From positions 1 to 64,000 of IMG/VR virus record IMGVR_UViG_3300029922_000038: a DNA stretch of 64,000 nucleotides; one strand, 5' to 3'. This DNA comes from a virus. Every line of letters begins with the position of its first letter. Position 1 is the stretch's first letter. Shown here piece after piece: positions 11,497 to 32,541 of this stretch. The translations under genes were made by a program, and so were the position numbers. The notes beneath the pieces are model-generated. The model did not search any database. It saw only the letters and a program-made list of their open reading frames with translations, and was not told the origin of the DNA.

Positions 11497-12663
11497 ATGA
11501 ATTATTTAAAAGAAATAGAAAAGAGTATAGAAAGAGCAAAGAAATTATTAGAAAATGCTCAATCTAAATTAGTAGAAGAAAAAGGTAAAGGAAAACCTAC
11601 ACCATTAGAAGGATATAAAATGAAATATTCTGGTGTAATTGAAGGAGGAGATTATTTATGGTATTCTAATAGGTGGGATCCTGCACGAAGAGCAATTGGG
11701 GAGCAAGTAGGATGGAGTAATTATGATATAGTTTGTACTCCTATTAATAAATCTATTCCAATTCCAGAAGGATATGAAGAAATATTTAAAGGATTTTGGA
11801 AACCTGAGGATATGTGGACAGAAAAGAATAATCAATATTCTTGGAGACATATTAATTTTGTATCACTTTCAGATATTAAAGAACATACTTCTAAAAGATT
11901 TATTAGACCTATTGCTAAAAAAGAAGATATTAAAGCTGGATATGGTTACTATTTATTAAAGAATGGAGATTTAATTATATCAGGAGATGAATTAATAATT
12001 AAAGATTTAAAATGGTATAATTCAAATAATATCACTTATGTAGATTTAAAAAATGGTATTAAAGCTTATAGAAGAAAAGTTTTTATACCTGAAGGATGGG
12101 AACTTGTATCTGAAAATGAATATGTTAAAAGATGGGATAAATGTTTTAATATACGCTCAAAAACTTTTGTTAATTGTGATCCTTTTCCTAATACTGAGGC
12201 TAATAAATATATGTATGCGGTTATTCGTAAAATAGAACCTAAAATAGTAGTTCCAGAAGGATATTATATAGAAAATGATCCTGAATATATTATTCAAGAG
12301 AATGATTTAGTAGTTAGCAAGATTACATCACTTTCTAATATATATCGGGAGAAACCACATATTTCATTGGGGAAATCTATTAGAAACTGTAAAAAATATT
12401 GGGATGGTTATTATTATATTGAGATAGCAAGACCTATTAAACATGAACCTACTATTGAAGAAATGAATAGGGAGGTTAGTTCATTTTTAAATACACTTTC
12501 TGGATATGGTTCTCCTAATTATTATCTTAATTGGGGGAGTTTAATAACTGCCTTACAAAAAGTATATCTTGATACTTGGCAGTATCATATAATAGAAGGT
12601 GATATTACTAAAACATTTAAGCATTTATATAACTTTGTTATAATAATTAATAAATCTAAATGA
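11497..12663 (+). CDS. hypothetical protein with five tandem ~50-aa repeat modules
   Basis: Repeated PEG(Y/W)...D...W...(R/T)(P/K)I units. Confidence 0.85.
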   Translation: MNYLKEIEKSIERAKKLLENAQSKLVEEKGKGKPTPLEGYKMKYSGVIEGGDYLWYSNRWDPARRAIGEQVGWSNYDIVCTPINKSIPIPEGYEEIFKGFWKPEDMWTEKNNQYSWRHINFVSLSDIKEHTSKRFIRPIAKKEDIKAGYGYYLLKNGDLIISGDELIIKDLKWYNSNNITYVDLKNGIKAYRRKVFIPEGWELVSENEYVKRWDKCFNIRSKTFVNCDPFPNTEANKYMYAVIRKIEPKIVVPEGYYIENDPEYIIQENDLVVSKITSLSNIYREKPHISLGKSIRNCKKYWDGYYYIEIARPIKHEPTIEEMNREVSSFLNTLSGYGSPNYYLNWGSLITALQKVYLDTWQYHIIEGDITKTFKHLYNFVIIINKSK

Positions 12664-13790
12664 CTTATTGTTATGATATAGAATGTTACCCAAATTTATT
12701 TTGTGTAACTTTTATAGATATAAAAAATACAGATAATATCTTTCAATTTACAATATTTGAAGATATTAATGAATTGGAAGAATTATCTGTATTTATGAGT
12801 TCTGTTAAATGTTTAATAGGATATAATAGTCTTTATTATGATGATCTTATTCTAAAGTATTTACTTCAGAAAATAGATAAATTTGAAATGGATACTGATG
12901 GTCTTACCAAGAGACTATATAATTTATCACAAGAAGTTATATCTTTTCAAGGTTTTGGAAGACCTGATTCTGTTAAATATTTAAAGAATACTTATTTATC
13001 AATAGATTTAATGTCTATACTTGCATTTAACAAGTTAAAAATAGGGTTAAAACAAGTAGCTATTAATCTTAGATGGCCAAGAATACAAGATTTACCTATT
13101 CATTGGTCTTCTTATATTAAAGATAGAGAAGAAGCAAGAATAGTTCTTGATTATAATAAAAATGATACTGAAATAACTATTGCTTTATTCAATAAACTTG
13201 AGCCTGAAATAAGATTAAGAAATCAAATTGGCAATATTTATGAAGTTAAGATACTAAATAGTTCTAATGCTGATATTGGTCATAGATTACTTAATAAACT
13301 TTATAGTCAAGCTACTGGTTTAGATTTATCTGAATTTAAAGATTTAAGAACTGAAAGATATATTATTCCATTTAAGAATATTATATCTGATAAAATTAAA
13401 TTTATAACTCCTAATTATCAAAAATTATATGACTTCTTATATAATTATGTATTAGAAGTAGGACAATCAGATAATAAAACCCAAGATAAAGGTATATATA
13501 AACTCATTAGTAAAGGTAAAAGATATATTATTGGTACTGGAGGATTACATTCAGATAATCCACCTAAAATATATAATTCTACTGAAAACAGTAAGATAAT
13601 TTCAGCGGACGTAAATTCTTTTTACCCAAATATAGTTATAGAAGAGAAAGTTGTTCCAGAACATTTAGATAATAGATTCTTTAAATTATATAAAGAAATT
13701 ATAGATAGGAGAATAACTGCTAAAAAAGAGAAGGGTAGTAAAAGTGTTGAAGCTGAAACTTTAAAAATTGTGTTGAACAGTGTGTTTGGT
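12660..13790 (+). CDS. polB: family B DNA polymerase, exon 1
   Basis: Exonuclease motifs YDIE, GYNSxxYDD, YNxND; motif A SADVNSFYP; motif B KIVLNSVFG. Confidence 0.93.
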
Positions 13791-13833
13791 TTGAAAATTT
13801 AAAAATAAATTAGGTTTATATTGAATTAAATAT

Positions 13834-13841
13834 TATCTTTG
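13834..13841 (+). promoter_or_regulatory. -7 promoter element for intron endonuclease
   Basis: TATCTTTG 17 nt upstream of ATG. Confidence 0.6.
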
Positions 13842-13858
13842 TAATATATAATTATATT

Positions 13859-14641
13859 ATGGAATACAAAGATTTAGATAAAAGTGGAGTTTATACAATT
13901 ACAAATATTGTGAATGATAAAAAATATGTAGGTAGTACAATAATGAGTTTTCAGAAAAGGTTTGCTCATCATTTATCTATGTTAAGAAATAATAATCATA
14001 AAAATAGATATTTACAAAATTCTTGGAATAAGTATGGAGAACAAAATTTTAAATTTGAAATTTTAGATATTTGTGAAAAAGAATTTTGTTTATCTACAGA
14101 ACAATATTGGCTAAATATATTAAACTCTACAAATAAGTCTATAGGATTTAATATAAATCCATTAGCAACTGGGCCAGATAAAAGTCCAGAAACTATTGAA
14201 AAAAGAAGACAATCTATATTAGAAAATTATAGAACTGGTAAAATGGTTTCTTTTTTTAAAAAAGGTTTTACTCCCTGGAATAAAGGACAAAAAATGTCAC
14301 AGGAACATTGTGACAAATTAAAATCCTCCGCAAAAGGAAGAACTATGTCAATAGAAGCTAAAGAGAATTTAATAAAAAATTATAGAAAAGATATGAATCA
14401 CATTCTTGTATATGCTCAAAATAATGAGATTATAGGAGAATGGAATAATATTTATGAGCTTAGTGAATATTCAGTTAATAATAATATATTAACTGAATTT
14501 ACTGGAAGATTTAAAAATGGAAGAAAAGGGAAGCCTATTCATTATTTAAGTGCATTTCATATACATAGAGCAGCTATAGGAAAAATTGATTCTTACAAAG
14601 GTCTTATTTTTAAATATAAAACAAGCCCCCTAATAGAGTAA
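13859..14641 (+). CDS. GIY-YIG homing endonuclease with NUMOD3-like motifs
   Basis: GVY-N9-YVGS, R..H, E..W, FN; PWNKGQKMSQEH. Confidence 0.93.
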   Translation: MEYKDLDKSGVYTITNIVNDKKYVGSTIMSFQKRFAHHLSMLRNNNHKNRYLQNSWNKYGEQNFKFEILDICEKEFCLSTEQYWLNILNSTNKSIGFNINPLATGPDKSPETIEKRRQSILENYRTGKMVSFFKKGFTPWNKGQKMSQEHCDKLKSSAKGRTMSIEAKENLIKNYRKDMNHILVYAQNNEIIGEWNNIYELSEYSVNNNILTEFTGRFKNGRKGKPIHYLSAFHIHRAAIGKIDSYKGLIFKYKTSPLIE

Positions 14642-14877
14642 TCTATTAAGGGAATTGGGTGAATTGCTGGAAAGCTAAGTAGAAATATAAGCTAATCAGC
14701 AGCCAAGCTAAATTTAAGTTAAAAGAATTTAGAAGGTTCAGAGACTACAGGGGTGAGCTTAACAATAATCTCCTGCACGAGTGCCCAACATCCTAAATTT
14801 AGGATGATGATATAGTCCGAGCTATATAGAAATATATAGAATATAGAGATAAAGAACTCTATAGATAACAAATACTG

Positions 14878-15660
14878 AAACTGGGGTTCGCACATTTTTG
14901 GCTATATGATCTTAATGCTCTTTATAAAATAACTATTAATGGACAATTGTTTCTATTAATGTTAATAGAACAATTAGAAGAAAATGGATTTGAGATAATA
15001 GGAACAAATACAGATGGACTGGAAGTAATAGTACCAAATAATAAAAGAGGATTATATGATTTTATTTGTAATCTATGGGAACATGATACTGGATTTGTAT
15101 TAGAATATGATATATATAGCAAAATAGTTATCAAAGATTGTAATAATTATATATCTATAACTGAAGAAGGTAAAATAAAAGAGAAAGGTAGTTTTCTCAC
15201 TAATAGGAGTAAAATATCACTTGTAGATGAACTAAAGAGAGCCTTTGATATGCCTATAATAGCAGAAGCATTATTTTTATATTTTATAGAACAAATACCT
15301 ATTTCAGAAACTATTAAAAATAATAAAGATATATATAACTTTTGTACTTCTCAAAAAGCAGGTAGTGAATTTGAAATAGAATACCATTATATAAAAAATG
15401 ATGATAATAATATTCCTACTAAGTTTATAGAGAAGATGCAAAAAACAAATAGATATTATATATCTACTAAAGGAGGGGCACTACTAAAAAAAAAGAATAA
15501 TAAATATACTTCAATGGCAGCAGGACTTACAATAGAGATATTTAATAACTATATAGAAAAAGATATGAAAGATTATAATATAGATTATAATTATTATATA
15601 TCTGAATGTAATAAAGTAATAAATGTAATAATGAATAATTTTCAACAAAGTTTATTTTAA
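14878..15660 (+). CDS. polB: family B DNA polymerase, exon 2
   Basis: ITINGQLFLLML, motif C NTDG, NNYI, KEKG; spliced protein 637 aa. Confidence 0.93.
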   Translation, partial: KLGFAHFWLYDLNALYKITINGQLFLLMLIEQLEENGFEIIGTNTDGLEVIVPNNKRGLYDFICNLWEHDTGFVLEYDIYSKIVIKDCNNYISITEEGKIKEKGSFLTNRSKISLVDELKRAFDMPIIAEALFLYFIEQIPISETIKNNKDIYNFCTSQKAGSEFEIEYHYIKNDDNNIPTKFIEKMQKTNRYYISTKGGALLKKKNNKYTSMAAGLTIEIFNNYIEKDMKDYNIDYNYYISECNKVINVIMNNFQQSLF

Positions 15661-25321: not shown

Positions 25322-26317
25322 ATGATAAATGTCTTTCCTAAGATAACAAAGTCTTTTATTCTTAATAGAATTACAGAAATAGAAATAATGGAGAGATATT
25401 TAGGTTTAAAAGTAGATACTAATAAACTATATAAATCTCCACTTAGAGTTGATAAACACCCCACATGTAAATATACATATTGGAATGGTAGACTTTATTT
25501 TAAAGATTTTAATGGTAGTTTTAATGGTGATTGTTTTAATGTTGTACAAAAAATACATAGTACTAATTTCTTAGATTCTTTATATATTATAGCAAACGAC
25601 TTTAATATATTAAAGAAACCTAAGAAAGAATTAGTAGAATATATATTTGATAAACCACCTGTTCAGGAAAAACTATCAATAGGTATTAAATCACAACCAT
25701 TTACAGATATAGATAAACAATACTGGGATTCTTATTTTATATCAGAACAATCATTAGAGAAATATTTTGTATATAGTTGTAAACAAGTATTCATTGGAGA
25801 GAATATTATTTATAATTATAGCAAGAAAGACCCAGCTTATGCTTATTACTTTGGTAATGGCAACTATAAAATTTATTTTCCATTTAGAAAGAAAGAAGAA
25901 AAAAGATTTATTAATAACTGTAATAATACTATTATTCAAGGGTATTGGCAATTGCCAAAGGAGAATAACTTATTAATTATTACTAAGTCTTATAAAGATG
26001 TTATATGTTTAAGTGAATTTAATATTCATTCAATTGCTCCTCAAAGTGAAACATGTGGGCTAACACATGGATTAATACGAGAGTTATCTCAAAGATTTAA
26101 AACTATTATAAGTTTATATGACTTTGATTTAACAGGAATAAGAGGGGCAAATAAATTATATAAAGAAGAAAATATAAAACCTATCTTTTTTACCAATGGG
26201 AGATTTAATTCTATAGATTATCAGGCAAAAGACTTTTCAGATTATTTGCATGATAATGGATTTTTAAAAACAAAAGAGTTAGTAGATGGTCTACTAACAC
26301 AAAAACTAATTAATTAA
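25322..26317 (+). CDS. DNA primase (crAss DnaG-like, TOPRIM)
   Basis: SPLRxDxxP, FKDF, GDCF, ITKSYKDV, YDFDxxG, KDFSD. Confidence 0.9.
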   Translation: MINVFPKITKSFILNRITEIEIMERYLGLKVDTNKLYKSPLRVDKHPTCKYTYWNGRLYFKDFNGSFNGDCFNVVQKIHSTNFLDSLYIIANDFNILKKPKKELVEYIFDKPPVQEKLSIGIKSQPFTDIDKQYWDSYFISEQSLEKYFVYSCKQVFIGENIIYNYSKKDPAYAYYFGNGNYKIYFPFRKKEEKRFINNCNNTIIQGYWQLPKENNLLIITKSYKDVICLSEFNIHSIAPQSETCGLTHGLIRELSQRFKTIISLYDFDLTGIRGANKLYKEENIKPIFFTNGRFNSIDYQAKDFSDYLHDNGFLKTKELVDGLLTQKLIN

Positions 26318-26323
26318 TTTTTT

Positions 26324-26884
26324 ATGAGTTCTCGTAAAATTACTGTGTACTCTACACAGACTAATAAAAAGAGTGAAGTAAATACAGATGTAGCAACATG
26401 GGCAGAACTGCAAGCAGTAATGACAGATGCTGGTATTACCCATGAAGGTCTAACTGCAACAGAAAACAGGACAAAAACTAATTTGTCTTTAGGAGCAGCA
26501 GTTCTGCCAGAAGGAGAATTTGTTCTATTTCTTTCGCCAAGTACTAAAATTAAGAGTGGTACTTCTTGGAGAGATATGTCTTATAATGACATCAGGAAAC
26601 ACGCTACTTCAATTGGTGTATCTGGTTTAGGTACAACCGCAGAAATTGGTCAAAGGATTGAAAACTGGGAGAAAACTAACAAGAATACATCATCTTCAAA
26701 TGATATTCTTAATACTAAATTTCCTACAGTAGCTGCTAAACTTGATGCTTTTATTAAGCATACAGATAAACAATTTGCAGAAGTATCAGAAGCTGTTAAT
26801 AATAGTGATTATTTTGATAATACTCCTTTTGGAGAAGATGACAATTCTAATCTTGCAAATGAAGCTGCAAGTCTTGGATTGTAA
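26324..26884 (+). CDS. ubiquitin-like protein precursor (Ubl-Gly79 plus SAP/HeH-like extension)
   Basis: Beta-grasp-like pattern ending LPEGEFVLFLSPSTKIKSG; adjacent to E2/JAB/E1 genes. Confidence 0.72.
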   Translation: MSSRKITVYSTQTNKKSEVNTDVATWAELQAVMTDAGITHEGLTATENRTKTNLSLGAAVLPEGEFVLFLSPSTKIKSGTSWRDMSYNDIRKHATSIGVSGLGTTAEIGQRIENWEKTNKNTSSSNDILNTKFPTVAAKLDAFIKHTDKQFAEVSEAVNNSDYFDNTPFGEDDNSNLANEAASLGL

Positions 26885-26905
26885 TAAGTTTCATATTTTT
26901 AATAG

Positions 26906-26940
26906 TAAAATAGGGGTAGAAATGCCCCTATTTTATTTTA
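26906..26940 (+). terminator. intrinsic terminator after Ubl gene
   Basis: TAAAATAGGGGTA-GAAA-TGCCCCTATTTTA plus T-rich tail. Confidence 0.85.
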
Positions 26941-26951
26941 ATATTTAATAT

Positions 26952-28496
26952 ATGTATGAATATAAAGCAGGAGATATAGTAAAAATAATAAATGGGAAAG
27001 GAAGTGATTTAGGTAGTATGCTAAATGGTAAAGAGGTTATATTAGATACTCAACCAGATGATGGCTATAGATTAGGTACAGATAGTAAATATAATCAAAA
27101 ATTAGTATTTTCTTATTTTGATAGGGATGGAGATTTAGTAGATTCATTATATTTTAGAGATGAAGATATAGAACTTGTAGGTTGGACATATATACCAGAT
27201 TATGAATTAATAAAAGATAAAAGGTTTAAATTAATAGAAACTGATTTAAATGAACAATTTGTTAATCCTAATTATATAAATAGTGAAGAAGTTTATAAGC
27301 ATGGACTTATAGAGTTAGATTCAAGAGGATATTTTTGTAGTTTTGGAGGATCTATGATTGATTTACAAATTAGAGTATCTTCAAATTCAGATAGCCCGAA
27401 TTATAATATTTTTAATGAACTTCAATATAAAGTAGAAATAAGATTAGATAATACTATTAAGATATTTTATAAAGAGCCTCAAGTAATATTTGATATTTCT
27501 ATTATAGAAGAATATAAAACTATATTTAATGATTATTTTAAAGAAGATTGTGAAATTAGAAAAATAAATAATATAGAATATGAATTTGTAATTCATTTTC
27601 CTGATATAATTATAAAAAATGAGTTAGATAAAACTCATCCAATTAAAGACTTATATGTATTTTTTAATCTTAAGGTATTACAAAATAATAGATTTGTCTT
27701 TATGAGAGAAAATCAATCAGATTATTATTTAAGTGGTTGTAGAGGAACAGTAACAGATAGAGAATATGCTGTAAAATATCAACATTCTCATTTATCTTCT
27801 GGTTATCATAATTCTAAATTTTGTTTAGGGACTGGCCCCATTTTAACTAATATTGCTGCATTTAATATGCGGAATGATAGTTTATTATTTGAAAAAATAA
27901 TGTTGGATATTATAGATTATATAAGTGTTGAAAGTATAGAAGGTACTCCATATATTGAATTTAAATGTGTTTATACCCCAAGAAATCAACAAAGAATTAA
28001 TATAAGTGATTTACAATTACGACAAGAATATCTAAATTTCTTATCTTATTATGATAATTTACCTGTATCTATTAGTAATTTAGAAATAAAAGTAGATGAA
28101 AATAATCCTGAATTTATTAAACAGGTATCTGCTATTACTAATTTTATAAATGGTCAGGAATCAGAAATACAAATTAGTAATAGCGATAAGAATAAATTAA
28201 TGTTAATATTTAAAAATGAAGAAGTTAGACTTAAAATTATTAAAGAAGAAAAAACAGATGAGCAAAATAAAGAGCAGCTACAAAGAGTTGCAAATACAAG
28301 AGTCCTCCAATATATCGCAAAAAAACTTAGTGAAGACTTATCAGACAAAGCCATTAGTGGAATTACCAGGAAGAGCGAAGCTGGTTATTTCACAGGAACT
28401 TTGGTTGAAGATACATCAACTTCACTTGAATGTAGGGAAAATAGAGTGGTCAGGAGTATTGTTTCTAAAAGTGGAAGGAAACTTACTAAATTATAA
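26952..28496 (+). CDS. prokaryotic E2/UBC-like protein
   Basis: YQHSHL-x8-FCLG (Cys291) resembles the HPN...CL E2 active site; gene context. Confidence 0.68.
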   Translation: MYEYKAGDIVKIINGKGSDLGSMLNGKEVILDTQPDDGYRLGTDSKYNQKLVFSYFDRDGDLVDSLYFRDEDIELVGWTYIPDYELIKDKRFKLIETDLNEQFVNPNYINSEEVYKHGLIELDSRGYFCSFGGSMIDLQIRVSSNSDSPNYNIFNELQYKVEIRLDNTIKIFYKEPQVIFDISIIEEYKTIFNDYFKEDCEIRKINNIEYEFVIHFPDIIIKNELDKTHPIKDLYVFFNLKVLQNNRFVFMRENQSDYYLSGCRGTVTDREYAVKYQHSHLSSGYHNSKFCLGTGPILTNIAAFNMRNDSLLFEKIMLDIIDYISVESIEGTPYIEFKCVYTPRNQQRINISDLQLRQEYLNFLSYYDNLPVSISNLEIKVDENNPEFIKQVSAITNFINGQESEIQISNSDKNKLMLIFKNEEVRLKIIKEEKTDEQNKEQLQRVANTRVLQYIAKKLSEDLSDKAISGITRKSEAGYFTGTLVEDTSTSLECRENRVVRSIVSKSGRKLTKL

Positions 28497-28659
28497 AGAT
28501 ATGGAGTTTACTGCTGTAGATATGTATCTTATGGATATAGGAGATGCGACAAGTACAGAGTTTGATTTCCAAGATACAGCTTGGCTAAATGCTTTTGATG
28601 AAAACCCAGATTTAATGGGATTAAAAATGGGATTATGTCACAGTCATCATTCAATGGCT
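28258..28659 (+). CDS. JAB/MPN metalloprotease, exon 1
   Basis: EWSGVLF catalytic Glu; GLCHSHHSMA; start ATG 28258 (28216 possible). Confidence 0.88.
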
Positions 28660-28688
28660 AAATATTAGTTATTTCAATAAATATTGTT

Positions 28689-28696
28689 TATATTTG
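28689..28696 (+). promoter_or_regulatory. -7 promoter element for intron endonuclease
   Basis: TATATTTG upstream of ATG 28718. Confidence 0.55.
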
Positions 28697-28717
28697 TACA
28701 TAATAAAATGTATAAAT

Positions 28718-29545
28718 ATGAAATTACTTTCAAAACAAGAAAAAGAAAAAATTGCAGAATTATATGATTCTGGATTAAATGCAGTAGAGATTAAAAGAGA
28801 GATGGGTTTAAAAAATCATCAACAAGTATATAATGTATTAAAATATTTACCTCAATATCAAGCATATAAATATGGTAGAGGGGATAATAGAAAATATACA
28901 CTAAATGAAGATTATTTTAAAATTATTAATTCAGAAGAAAAAGCATATATATTTGGTTTTATATGTGCAGATGGACATGTAGCTTTTAATAGACTAAGAA
29001 TATTAGTAGCAACAAAAGATAAAGATATACTTGAAAAAATTAGAGTATGTTTAGAGTCTTCTGATGAAGTAGAAGATGTAATTAGAGAATCCAGATTTTC
29101 TTATGGAAAAAGATTATTCTATCATTCGCAAATAGCATTTAATTCAATTAAACTTGCAAAAGATTTGTTAAATTTAGGATTAGATAGTAGAAAAACTTAT
29201 TCTTTATCATCAAAAATATTAGAAAATATTCCTCTTAATTATATGAAGGATTTTTTAAGAGGATATTTTGATGGAGATGGGAATGTTATGTATGGGAATA
29301 AATATAGTTCTGGTAAGAAATATCTTATTCAGATAGCTGGGAATAAAGAGTTTTTAGAAAATTCTTTTGGAAAATATTTTCCAACAACTAATAAGTATTA
29401 TTTTTTCCCTAAATCTATACAAACTTGGTGTTATAAACTATCATCTAAAGAAAATGTGAATAAATTTTTAGAATATATTTACAAAGATTCTACAATTTTT
29501 CTTAATAGAAAGTATAATATTTATAAAAATAATGTGGCCATTTAA
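28718..29545 (+). CDS. LAGLIDADG homing endonuclease (two motifs, N-terminal HTH)
   Basis: AYIFGFICADG and FLRGYFDGDG. Confidence 0.93.
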   Translation: MKLLSKQEKEKIAELYDSGLNAVEIKREMGLKNHQQVYNVLKYLPQYQAYKYGRGDNRKYTLNEDYFKIINSEEKAYIFGFICADGHVAFNRLRILVATKDKDILEKIRVCLESSDEVEDVIRESRFSYGKRLFYHSQIAFNSIKLAKDLLNLGLDSRKTYSLSSKILENIPLNYMKDFLRGYFDGDGNVMYGNKYSSGKKYLIQIAGNKEFLENSFGKYFPTTNKYYFFPKSIQTWCYKLSSKENVNKFLEYIYKDSTIFLNRKYNIYKNNVAI

Positions 29546-29805
29546 AACACATTGAATTGCTGGAAACCTAAGTCTATTTATAGATATGGCAATCAGCAGC
29601 TAAGATTAATCTTATGATTAATAAAGTTCAGAGACTATCGAAAACACAGTTTAAAAACTGGAAGTTAGTAGAGTACATCCAAGTGGATGGAAGCGGTGTG
29701 ACTTTACACTTAGTAAAGTATGATATAGTCCGATACCACGTAACTACTGAAGTTACTATACCGAAAGGGTGGAAGTTGTCTAACGAACAACAGGTAAATT
29801 TATTG

Positions 29806-30603
29806 ACATTTTTTTCAGGTACAGATATAGGGCATTTACATTCTCAATCTCCAGATCATAATTACTTTCTATCTTTAATTGTTAATTTTGCGTGTGAACC
29901 AATTGCTAAAGTAGCTTTTGCTTCTACGCGAAAATTAGCTTCATCATCTTCTTTTAGTTTTAGAGATGATGAAGGGAATATACAATTTCAAGAAGATAAT
30001 AGTAATAAAGAAGAAGATATTACAGTAGTATTTAATTGTGATGTATTTGTAGAAATAGAACCTAAACTTCTTGATAGAATAGATGAATTAAAAGAAGCTA
30101 AGAAAAATAGGTATAAACAATTTACAAATAATTGGAATACTAAAAAACAAAATTATATTCATACTGATTTTGATTGGGAAAAATGGAAAGCTGAACAAAA
30201 TGGAGAAGGAATAGCTACTGTTTGGGATACTGAAGGTAAGAGATTAAATGCTACTGATATTCAAACGGAGTTTGATTTTAGTAATCATGAAAAACTTATT
30301 GCAGATTCACAAATAGAATATTTTACTAAATGTTTACTTGCTGATACTTATAATGATTATGAGAAAACAGTAGAATTATTAGTAGAAGATAGAAATGCTT
30401 GTGTAGATACAAATGCTGAAGCAAGACAATGTTGTATGGCCATGCACATGATGTATGATTCTGTTTTTCATGATGATACTTATTTTACTGAAGTCATGAC
30501 TAAAGTTATAGCTCTATTAGGTAAATATAAAAGTGATTTTACAACAAAGATGATTTCTATCATTAAACAAGAATTAAAAGAATATGTCAGCACAGAATTA
30601 TGA
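29806..30603 (+). CDS. JAB/MPN metalloprotease, exon 2
   Basis: TFFSGTD completes HxH-x7-S-x2-D; FLSLIVN; spliced protein about 399 aa. Confidence 0.88.
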   Translation, partial: TFFSGTDIGHLHSQSPDHNYFLSLIVNFACEPIAKVAFASTRKLASSSSFSFRDDEGNIQFQEDNSNKEEDITVVFNCDVFVEIEPKLLDRIDELKEAKKNRYKQFTNNWNTKKQNYIHTDFDWEKWKAEQNGEGIATVWDTEGKRLNATDIQTEFDFSNHEKLIADSQIEYFTKCLLADTYNDYEKTVELLVEDRNACVDTNAEARQCCMAMHMMYDSVFHDDTYFTEVMTKVIALLGKYKSDFTTKMISIIKQELKEYVSTEL

Positions 30604-31291
30604 TAGATTTAAAGATGCTCCTTGGTTCAAACCCCTTAAAGTAATTGTAGGGGGTGCTGGAGGTATAGGTTCCAATCTTATTTATCTCTTAGCTAAAATG
30701 CCATATCGAATTTATATATATGATTTTGATGTAGTAGAAGCACATAATAGTTGTCAAATGCTTGGAGGTTTTACTAATATAGGTAAGTTAAAAACAAGAG
30801 CAGTAAGAGAACTTGCACAAAAATTATCAGATAATTATGGTATTAGAGAGTTTGGAGAATATACTTCAGAAGGAATGGTAGACGATATTATGTTTGCTGG
30901 ATTTGATAATATGAAAGCAAGGAAGTTAATGTATGATAACTGGAAACAATATCAATTAACTAAAGTAGAAGAACCTGCTATAGAAGAACCTAAGAAAGAG
31001 GTTAATTTATTTGTAGATATGAGATTAGCAGCAGAAACAGGTATTATATATTTTATAGACTCTAAAGAAAGAATGGAAAGATATGAAGCTGAATTATTTG
31101 ATGATTCAGAAGTTCCAGATGAACCATGTACTTTTAGAGCTACTGCTCATGCTTCTATGTTAATAGCTTCTTATGCTGTTGCAGGGTTAGTTAATAAGGT
31201 AACTAATGTTGAATGGGGAATAGAGGCAAGAGAAGTACCATTTAAACTTAATTTTGAATTACCATTATTTAATATGAAAACAATTGTATGA
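30584..31291 (+). CDS. ThiF/MoeB/E1-family adenylyltransferase
   Basis: GAGGIGS, YDFDVVEAHN, K, FDNMKAR, DMR, candidate catalytic Cys182. Confidence 0.92.
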   Translation: MSAQNYDRFKDAPWFKPLKVIVGGAGGIGSNLIYLLAKMPYRIYIYDFDVVEAHNSCQMLGGFTNIGKLKTRAVRELAQKLSDNYGIREFGEYTSEGMVDDIMFAGFDNMKARKLMYDNWKQYQLTKVEEPAIEEPKKEVNLFVDMRLAAETGIIYFIDSKERMERYEAELFDDSEVPDEPCTFRATAHASMLIASYAVAGLVNKVTNVEWGIEAREVPFKLNFELPLFNMKTIV

Positions 31292-32316
31292 TAGAGCAAT
31301 TACATATAGAAAATAATTTTGGATTTATATTACAAAATCATGGCATTAAAGAAAGTAATTCTTATTGTGAATATGTTCCTTTTTATATATTAAAGCAGAA
31401 TACAGATTCTTTAATAAAATTAGAACAAGAGAATAGGCAAGGTATAGAAGAAATATATAATAATTTATATCATGAGTTTCAATTATGTCAAGATCAAACT
31501 TTTTCTCAATATTATACTATTGCTGAATTACCTGCTTTATTTCAAGAAAATGATATTATTAGTCATAGATTTAGATTAAGAAATTATGAAGAAGGAATAT
31601 ATTCTCCTTTTAATTTAGAAATAGAAGAAAATATAATTAGGCAATATGAAGATACTAAAAAATTTATATCTTTATTTTCATTAGTAATTCCTATTAAATA
31701 TGTACCTTATGTACAAATATGTTTAATGTTAGAAGAACCTATTGATTTAAGAGTATATGAATTTTGGATTAAAGAAGATTTTGATATTAAAGATTCTATT
31801 TATACTAATTATAGAAAACTATATAGAAAGTATTTATTACCTGATTTAAAAGAGAATAATGTTCCTATTGTAGTTAAAAAAGATATAGATAAAGAACTTT
31901 ATTTCTTTCCTGAAATGCCTAAATTTAAAAGAACTTCTGATTATGATAAATATGTAGAAGAACTTGTTAAAGATAGTATTATTAAATTAAGGATAGATAA
32001 TGGTATACAAGGTATTAATAATGATTTTCGTGTAACTTTTGAAAGTAATGATTATATATTAGAAGAAGGTACATTAAATGTTAATGGTACTACTTGGAGA
32101 ACTTTTAATAATTCTGGAGATAATTTAGTATCACAAATAATGAGTACTGATACTTATCAACCGTTAACTGCTGCAAGATTAGATTCATTTATATCAAATT
32201 TAACTTTTAATTCAAATAGTTCATTAGGTAGTAATATGCCCCCTGAAGAAAATCTAAATCATATTAATAATGAATTATATCAAGAAGCATTAAGGAGTAT
32301 GGAAACTTCTGAATAA
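31288..32316 (+). CDS. hypothetical protein coupled to E1 gene
   Basis: ATGA overlap, 342 aa. Confidence 0.8.
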   Translation: MIEQLHIENNFGFILQNHGIKESNSYCEYVPFYILKQNTDSLIKLEQENRQGIEEIYNNLYHEFQLCQDQTFSQYYTIAELPALFQENDIISHRFRLRNYEEGIYSPFNLEIEENIIRQYEDTKKFISLFSLVIPIKYVPYVQICLMLEEPIDLRVYEFWIKEDFDIKDSIYTNYRKLYRKYLLPDLKENNVPIVVKKDIDKELYFFPEMPKFKRTSDYDKYVEELVKDSIIKLRIDNGIQGINNDFRVTFESNDYILEEGTLNVNGTTWRTFNNSGDNLVSQIMSTDTYQPLTAARLDSFISNLTFNSNSSLGSNMPPEENLNHINNELYQEALRSMETSE

Positions 32317-32541
32317 GAAGAACAAGAAATAGAAAATGGTGCTCTTGAAGAAGAATGGTATGGAATAGGATTTGAATTAGGAGATGAATTTTAAAAATTA
32401 AATATTATGAGAATTATAAAATATTTTAGTCATAGTTTTAAAAGTTCTATAAAACATAGAATTGGGTCTAATAAAACTAATACTGAACATCAGTATTATA
32501 ATATTTGGACTAATAAAACATGGCTTGAAAAACAATAACAG

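Follow-up and report, generated by a model that had tools for sequence, protein, structure and literature searches.

How is a phage JAB/MPN+ gene expressed when the DNA encoding its metal-binding motif is broken in two? The question is raised by a locus on the plus strand of a 64,000-nucleotide (nt) stretch of viral DNA – bases 1-64000 of the 89,352-base IMG/VR virus record IMGVR_UViG_3300029922_000038, hereafter the window – and the analyses presented here indicate that positions 28660-29805 are very probably a mobile group I intron in the JAB gene of a crAss-like phage, one that is likely spliced constitutively as a selfish passenger. A first-pass annotation of the same DNA had called such an intron, and had added that splicing could gate the maturation of a ubiquitin-like (Ubl) protein; we find that the former claim holds in its base-level particulars and we argue against the latter. 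The stretch occurs mostly in peat metagenomes according to a sequencing-run search, the habitat label being drawn from runs that hold most of the stretch, with small-share runs left unused for this purpose.

Three open reading frames (ORFs) follow one another at the locus, of 150 amino acids (aa; 28216-28668), 283 aa (28694-29545) and 329 aa (29614-30603). The first reads ...GLCHSHHSMAKY at its C-terminal end, followed by a stop codon, and the third begins with 64 codons that are an in-frame reading of the ribozyme core described below, with TFFSGTD appearing from residue 65; the two broken ORFs reported at first pass are real. Exon 1 of the JAB gene (28258-28659, its start being uncertain between ATG 28258, ATG 28216 and GTG 28330) carries the EWSG glutamate motif and the H-x-H, and closes with CAT CAT TCA ATG GCT, last base 28659, to give ...HSHHSMA. 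Exon 2 (29806-30603) opens with ACA TTT TTT TCA GGT ACA GAT at 29806, that is, with TFFSGTD and the S-x2-D of the motif, continues into a C-terminal domain of about 230 aa and ends with its stop at 30603. The intron itself (28660-29805; 1146 nt; ends 5' AAATATT and 3' TTATTG) is preceded by U28659, has G29805 as its last base, and contains a TAG stop in the exon 1 frame (28666-28668) two codons inside it.

Because the intron length equals 382 x 3, its removal preserves the reading frame. The predicted ligated junction is ...TCAATGGCT/ACATTTTTTTCAGG (...AATGGCT/ACATTTT, or GCU/ACA in codons; here and below the slash marks the break), which encodes HSHHSMA/TFFSGTD, an H-x-H-x7-S-x2-D motif broken between the Ala and Thr codons. 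The cut could be slid one base rightward with an identical product (28660 and 29806 are both A); we set the limits at 28660-29805 because of the group I rule that a U precedes the intron and a G ends it. The coordinates, the in-frame junction and the splitting of the JAB zinc motif, all claimed in the first-pass annotation, were borne out on reading the bases, the full motif arising solely after the exons are joined. Moreover, the arrangement is not an assembly chimera, since both intron boundaries are present as DNA in an independent sample: in DNA run X2, which derives from a sample and study other than the probable source, one contig of 1611 nt spans 28200-29612 and another of 674 nt spans 29588-30261, each with 0 mismatches.

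The interruption carries both the splice-site pairings and the core of a group I ribozyme. The last bases of exon 1, AAUGGCU (28653-28659), form P1 with GGCCAUU (29536-29542) in seven of seven pairs, with U28659.G29536 at the splice site, and AAUGU (29531-29535) forms P10 with ACAUU (29806-29810) at the start of exon 2 in five of five pairs, contiguous with the P1 half. Together the two halves constitute an internal guide sequence (29531-29542), AATGTRGCCATT, able to pair with an unbroken run of 12 bases in the ligated exons. This 12-mer occurs once in the 64-kb window, both strands counted, against 0.03 occurrences expected (100 shuffles, of which 3 had a match), and the sole occurrence is inside the intron, immediately 5' of P3. 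On the whole record the covariance model RF00028 scores 54.5 bits at 29490-29750, against a gathering cut-off of 50; the score is real but not high. The pairings, the U.G pair and the group I assignment had been put forward at first pass, with a covariance-model search proposed as a check, and they stand on the direct pair check and on this score. In the Rfam alignment the conserved P4, P7 and J8/7 blocks are AAUUGCUGGAAA, AAUCAGCAGC, GUUCAGAGACUA and GAUAUAGUC (P/Q/R/S element names for core blocks of this kind follow the review PMC3984707).

The Rfam alignment, the minimum free energy (MFE) fold and a manual pair check place the core at 29548-29805. Its helices are P3 (29548-54:29694-700), P4 (29558-63:29593-98), P7 (29633-38:29725-30) and P8 (29701-07:29713-19), all fully paired, together with P5/P5a (29568-76:29581-89) and P6/P6a (29599-611:29616-27), the latter with a 7-bp hairpin and a fully paired P6a. 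Two extra hairpins, P7.1 (29647-51:29656-60) and P7.2 (29676-80:29685-89), lie between P7 and the 3' strand of P3, and three hairpins occupy the P9 region (29740-56, 29759-71 and 29775-91); the MFE fold recovers P3-P6, P7.1, P7.2, P8 and the P9 hairpins. P7.1 and P7.2 are a mark of subgroup IA2, the usual phage type, and by this measure we take the intron to be IA2-like. An alignment of four intron cores (MAFFT/RNAalifold) aligned poorly, with 12 predicted pairs and -4.07 kcal/mol, and was uninformative on covariation.

Relatives of the JAB gene read straight through the site. A word-indexed search with exon 2 returned three proteins, namely the window's own ORF, P0002 and P0003. P0002 (59% identical over exon 2) is continuous across the site, HTHHNMSTFYSGTD, within the longer stretch ...GLVHTHHNMSTFYSGTDLGHLH..., and so is P0003 (26% identical; 365 aa, complete), HTHHSMRTFFSGTD, within ...GHLHTHHSMRTFFSGTD...; in both the motif spacing is that of the spliced window gene. 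Exon 1 aligns to residues 11-118 of the JAB protein of Flavobacterium phage FpV4 (423 aa), ending exactly at HSHNTMA, after which FpV4 continues with VFFSGTD. The search for intronless homologues suggested by the first-pass annotation has in this way yielded three uninterrupted genes with the same spacing. On a wider scale, the best 80 of 436 IMG/VR relatives' loci were all uninterrupted across the motif (80/80; 73 by pattern, 7 by tblastn), in a sample biased to uninterrupted genes, since the site lay within one of the two search patterns and the loci kept were those that scored best. The single weak locus from a first IMG/VR search with exon 2 (L003) was irrelevant and was set aside.

The joined product has the two elements of a JAMM motif, an upstream Glu (EWSG, in exon 1) and H-x-H-x7-S-x2-D (HSH HSMA/TFF SGTD). 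P0003 has 166 relatives at E <= 0.001, and in a 43-sequence family alignment H113, H115, S123 and D126 are invariant and E49, W50, G110, M118, F121, F122 and G124 at least 90% conserved. Pfam Prok-JAB (PF14464) matches 24 of these 43 family members at E <= 0.01 (best 1.2e-7), and exon 2 matches phrog_16107 (E 1e-11). Judged by its motif and by the profile matches of its relatives rather than by fold, the gene is assigned to a divergent Prok-JAB family, and motif and family suggest that its product may be deubiquitinase-like. Separately, one very long protein (P0123, 4463 aa) matches exon 2 residues 18-77 in 14 stretches (E 1.4e-23), either a repeat array or a compositional artefact.

Within the loop of P1, past the 5' splice site and ahead of the guide, lies an intact ORF for a LAGLIDADG homing endonuclease (28694-29545, with TTG at 28694 and the likely start at ATG 28718). 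It matches Pfam LAGLIDADG_3 in two stretches (E 3.9e-10; 40.3 bits, cut-off 22.5) and the 'endonuclease' family phrog_4645 (E 3.9e-45), and its translation contains, in one chain, two LAGLIDADG-type motifs with an acidic residue, ICADG and FDGDG. Its final four sense codons, AAT GTG GCC ATT (N V A I, then stop), are the guide sequence. Because the guide lies within the last codons of the ORF, a ribosome finishing the endonuclease would occlude P1/P10, and it is plausible that endonuclease synthesis and splicing compete on a single RNA. None of four IMG/VR loci with relatives of the endonuclease (L088-L091) has a JAB homologue adjoining it.

From these features we infer splicing activity, endonuclease activity and the endonuclease target, and propose the following course of events, its chemistry being that set out in a review of group I introns (PMC3984707). 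The last 7 nt of exon 1 would pair with the guide 876 nt downstream to form P1, with the U.G pair at the cleavage site, and free guanosine would attack after U28659. With exon 2 held in P10 by the neighbouring 5 nt of the guide, and the exons so aligned, G29805 would then take the G-site in P7, and the exons would be ligated GCU/ACA to restore an intact JAB frame. The early TAG (28666-28668) would keep ribosomes that translate exon 1 out of the intron. The LAGLIDADG endonuclease would cut intron-less copies of the conserved coding stretch in co-infecting relatives, at a recognition site that would encode catalytic residues, and repair would copy the intron in (homing).

A second, different intron in the same motif is found in cultured phages. 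A tblastn search with P0003 against 50,697 phage records matched 74, among them 29 of 29 records from Flavobacterium psychrophilum phages. Twenty-two of the latter (FpV1, 2, 20, 21 and FPSV isolates, RefSeq/GenBank duplicates included) match in two pieces about 1.7 kb apart and seven (FpV3, FpV4) in one; among the matches listed, all non-Flavobacterium records (1 + 27) match in one piece, including crAss001, DAC15/17 and the PhiCrAssBcn phages. FpV4 has the gene annotated as a single coding sequence; FpV1 has it as two hypothetical proteins with an opposite-strand 'endonuclease' between. The FpV1 insert, unannotated as an intron in GenBank, is 1021 nt long (L004, NC_031914.1, 4262-5282), with a group I core first (43.4 bits, E 1.7e-9). 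Its local guide pairs GGUCAU with GUGACC, the splice-site pair being U.G, and GUAU with the AUAC that opens exon 2; the intron ends ...AATTG before ATA CAT TCA CAC, which places it at GH/IHSH, 24 nt upstream of the window's site.

The two introns share the host gene and motif, a group I core and homologous LAGLIDADG endonucleases (38% identity over 135 aa, E 1e-22). They differ in layout: the FpV1-type core stands at the 5' end of the intron with its guide local and the endonuclease antisense and downstream of the core, unlike the window's intron. When FpV1 is compared with FpV4, all 330 nt of exon 1 agree, and the 15 differences in exon 2, amounting to one amino-acid change, are confined to its initial 42 nt, with 0 in the remaining 900 nt; this cluster looks like a co-conversion tract left by homing from a diverged donor. 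Going by these genomes, the JAB intron is optional within a single genus (FpV3/FpV4 against FpV1). It may be added that phrog_21448 covers P0003 residues 25-111 and phrog_16107 starts at residue 111, the halves of the JAB protein forming separate PHROG families, apparently through the clustering of intron-split ORFs as proteins. That the interrupted site is conserved in related phages, as the first-pass annotation had surmised, is in agreement with the four invariant residues of the family alignment and with the second intron 24 nt away.

Several observations weigh against a functional intron in a JAB gene, and they concern the protein, the ribozyme and the transcripts in turn. P0003, P0002 and FpV4 score 14.3-16.6 bits for Prok-JAB, below the cut-off of 25; neither window exon alone has a Pfam match; and the family profile, run against the PDB sequences, found no JAB chain, its lone match being a spurious one to a tRNA ligase (E 0.12). 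PADLOC likewise matched neither JAB half. As to the ribozyme, a scan cut at 29520 (311 nt) gave 48.7 bits, just below the cut-off of 50 (E 1.2e-11 for this small search), and in a 3-kb Rfam E-value scan the intron went undetected, a filter effect because both the shorter and the whole-genome scans detected it. No P2 helix can be placed in the 5 nt separating the guide from P3. The fold energy of the core is modest (z = -1.84, with 8 of 200 shuffles folding equally well or better). Further, a local 7-bp hairpin of 28653-28659 (AAUGGCU) with 28667-28673 (AGUUAUU) pairs the splice-site U with an A; this hairpin (28653-28673) might compete with P1, and could form long before the distant guide is transcribed.

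No spliced joint was present among the contigs of three RNA-library runs (X12, X15 and X17), whose cover at exon 1 and the junction is near nil. Contigs from three metatranscriptome libraries cover parts of exon 2 (30236-30624), and one from X12 (315 nt) matches 29562-29855 with 0 mismatches, unspliced across the 3' splice site; it could be precursor RNA or carried-over DNA. Since the cover is poor, RNA libraries may contain DNA, and contigs drop rare forms, these contigs neither show nor exclude splicing. Independently, an RNA-library contig from X15 (record 3) agrees with 28311-28436 base for base, after which come 79 nt that do not resemble the window; it may be a variant or a chimera.

Of the other readings, the one that survives best is that of a regulatory intron, whose conditional splicing would time or gate the supply of active JAB and with it the maturation or recycling of a phage Ubl, for instance through ribosomes on the endonuclease ORF blocking P1/P10. 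The guide does form the last four sense codons of the endonuclease, making translation and P1/P10 incompatible on one RNA, the 5' splice site has its competing local hairpin, and the review cited above states that intron ORFs extending into core sequences have tightly controlled expression (PMC3984707). However, no sensor or aptamer turned up, nor any condition-dependent element; every one of the 80 best-scoring IMG/VR loci, within the bias of that sample, does without the intron; it is optional in one genus (FpV4/FpV3 versus FpV1); and the fact that FpV1 has another intron, inserted elsewhere in the gene, favours selfish insertion over a selected switch. We consider a regulatory role unlikely, and the first-pass proposal that splicing gates Ubl maturation finds no support: the sequence bears no sign of regulated splicing, and dependence on splicing is true of any intron-bearing gene.

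A decayed intron, with a ribozyme that no longer splices and a pseudogene from which no functional JAB is made, would account for the Rfam score barely over its cut-off, the missing P2, and the unspliced RNA-library contig at the 3' splice site where no spliced contig was seen. Decay would hardly have left what is found here, that is, both exons open, in frame and with every catalytic residue kept, the core helices, U.G pair, terminal G and perfect 12-nt guide all intact, an intact endonuclease ORF, and an E1-like gene still overlapping exon 2 as in relatives, and we regard it as highly improbable. That the JAB gene is simply divided by a free-standing endonuclease gene, its halves being translated separately and reassembling, would fit the way in which ORF callers and PHROGs treat the halves (phrog_21448 for the first, phrog_16107 for the second), but it has next to no likelihood given the ribozyme core, guide, U.G pair and terminal G, the lack of a start codon for exon 2 at the junction (the only upstream start adds 64 residues of translated ribozyme), and a break within the metal-binding motif that would leave each chain just some of the ligands.

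We return, then, to the proposed mobile, constitutively spliced intron, and to how often its site may have been invaded. At least two different group I introns lie 24 nt apart, with opposite architectures (an endonuclease in sense within the P1 loop, and one in antisense downstream of the core) and related LAGLIDADG endonucleases. With exon 2 as query, an exhaustive phmmer search of 1.84 billion cluster representatives found 515 matches at E <= 0.001, and N-termini were read for 51 of the 150 matches listed. Sixteen of these 51 begin M-x-x-FFSGTD or a close variant, starting at the conserved Met within the motif, as an ORF caller might be expected to do downstream of an FpV1-type break; P0222 and P0246 have M-TFFSGTD at their start, and the N-termini of several others lie within HSHN. 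Another 22 of the 51 are merely short at the N-terminus and continuous across the motif. P0246 comes from a 125-kb Logan contig, and its relatives in IMG/VR (41-42%) are uninterrupted; P0222 has no match in IMG/VR.

A cluster mate of P0222 is carried by a truncated JGI contig of 1766 nt (L095; Ga0182027_10314716), in which the ORF TTG ACG TTT TTC AGT GGA ACT GAT starts at base 59 and encodes a protein that shares 35% identity with exon 2 of the window. Upstream of the ORF are 58 nt that hold in-frame stops, begin with AGTCTGAAC and end ...CATTTG, and AGTCTGAAC equals the nine bases that follow GATAT in the FpV1 intron, in the 3' strand of its P7. This stub has the appearance of a group I intron's 3' end, placed precisely where the window's gene is split; with the contig cut short and the stub too short to give an Rfam match, it is a lead rather than a proven case. 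We suggest, tentatively, that in crAss-like and Fipvunavirus phages some 45 nt of JAMM-motif DNA may serve as a hot spot for homing at more than one site, where endonucleases could act as weapons against co-infecting intron-less rivals; in the window's intron, endonuclease translation and splicing would be mutually exclusive on each RNA.

That conserved phage genes can host group I introns equipped with homing endonucleases is textbook knowledge, and phage introns of the T4 td/nrdB/sunY type belong to subgroup IA2. Like those of T4, of FelixO1-like phages and of the FpV polymerase genes, the window's intron interrupts a highly conserved coding motif, has a stop codon soon past the 5' splice site, contains an ORF for a homing endonuclease and has P7.1/P7.2 in its core; over stretches of about 110-125 nt, the DNA of this core shares 77-83% identity with the DNA polymerase introns of FpV1 and FelixO1-like phages. 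Unlike them, it resides in a JAB/MPN+ protease-like gene rather than one for DNA metabolism or the virion, its endonuclease ORF is in the P1 loop with a 3' end that encodes the guide, and no P2 can be placed.

The crAss-like phages are described, in the main text of Yutin et al. [quoted passage not shown] The window's intron is like these in phage group and in its LAGLIDADG endonuclease, and the window also has a DNA polymerase intron; the words JAB, MPN, ThiF and ubiquitin do not occur in that main text. This second intron of the window (RF00028, 121.2 bits; core 14593-14839) splits the DNA polymerase gene (12660-15660), whose halves correspond to phrog_1252 positions 53-412 (12660-13802) and 436-655 (14947-15660), and it has a GIY-YIG endonuclease ORF (13859-14641) upstream of the core; in this intron and the JAB intron alike the order is exon-endonuclease-core-exon. 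In the jumbo phage PhiPA3 an intron endonuclease is reported to act in phage-phage competition (Science 2024, PMC11620839); such a competitive role has experimental backing in PhiPA3 and is possible in the window's phage. A literature search, limited in coverage and extending to no supplementary files, found no report of an intron in a JAB/JAMM gene, and nothing relevant, by title or abstract, on introns in Flavobacterium psychrophilum phages, nor anything relevant on endonucleases in connection with FpV4 or on a crAss-like ThiF. The JAB host gene appears to be new in print for an intron, the kind of element not.

The JAB gene stands in a conserved neighbourhood. A ThiF/E1-like gene (30584-31291, plus strand) adjoins it and overlaps its end by 20 nt, matching Pfam ThiF (E 1.1e-10; 41.6 bits, cut-off 28.1) and, weakly, two PADLOC profiles, E1-E2 (1.6e-6; Cap2-type) and BilD (3.5e-6). 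The order is primase (25322-26317), a 186-aa ORF (26324-26884), a 514-aa ORF (26952-28496), JAB, ThiF/E1, a 342-aa ORF, a RusA-like resolvase and exonuclease VIII, the 186-aa and 514-aa ORFs also being on the plus strand, and it is the same in FpV1/FpV4 and in crAss001 gp80-gp70. The JAB homologue of crAss001 is annotated 'metalloprotease domain containing protein' and adjoins 'ThiF'; the JAB-E1 pair is common to FpV1, FpV4 and crAss001, and the module is conserved in crAss001 and the Fipvunavirus phages.

The Ubl pathway in which the first-pass annotation placed the gene is accordingly upheld in part. Its E1-like ThiF and the JAB family membership stand; the E2 and the Ubl rest on weak Atlas leads, both below the reliability line, and neither the 186-aa nor the 514-aa protein has a Pfam or PADLOC match for Ubl/E2. 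For the 514-aa protein (25% identity to FpV4 gp52), possibly E2-like, the lead is Prok-E2_D (score 0.79; the family occurs in 14-15% of cluster members); for the 186-aa protein, a candidate Ubl, the Atlas rows are YukD (TM 0.38/0.58), ubiquitin (TM 0.40/0.17) and a Rho_N feature (0.76).

The sole plus-strand terminator-like hairpin in 26000-32500 (26904-26937; 15 pairs, then a T-run) sits just after the 186-aa gene and before the 514-aa gene. Because it is the single one, the 514-aa gene may be cotranscribed with JAB, E1 and the gene that follows, a weak inference; promoter-like sites were at chance level (57, with 49.1 +/- 8.0 expected). The overlap of the 514-aa gene with JAB amounts to some 150 nt at the least (167-281 nt according to which JAB start is used), the JAB frame being homologous to that of FpV4 from about 28345, and the upstream gene likewise overlaps the start of JAB in FpV1/FpV4 and crAss001, the annotated overlaps being 125 nt in FpV4 (L005, 3932-4056) and 62 nt in crAss001 (L006, 4941-5002). 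JAB is in the +1 frame relative to the upstream gene in the window and in FpV4. A fusion of the two by slippage was considered, given an A7 run at 28319-28325, and rejected, JAB being in the +1 frame and no matching run existing in FpV4 or crAss001.

Finally, considering what the intron means for these phages, an intron in the JAB gene is already present, unannotated, in the FpV genomes of GenBank, and the genes of the window's phage and of FpV1-type phages are currently read as hypothetical proteins plus an endonuclease; recognition of the introns restores one conserved gene in each. The range of phage genes that host group I introns would extend beyond those for DNA metabolism and the virion. 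Two independent introns in the same motif are natural evidence for strong conservation of the JAMM site at the DNA level, which fits an importance of the JAB-E1 module to these phages, and in the window's phage expression of the Ubl-like module would require the spliced gene.

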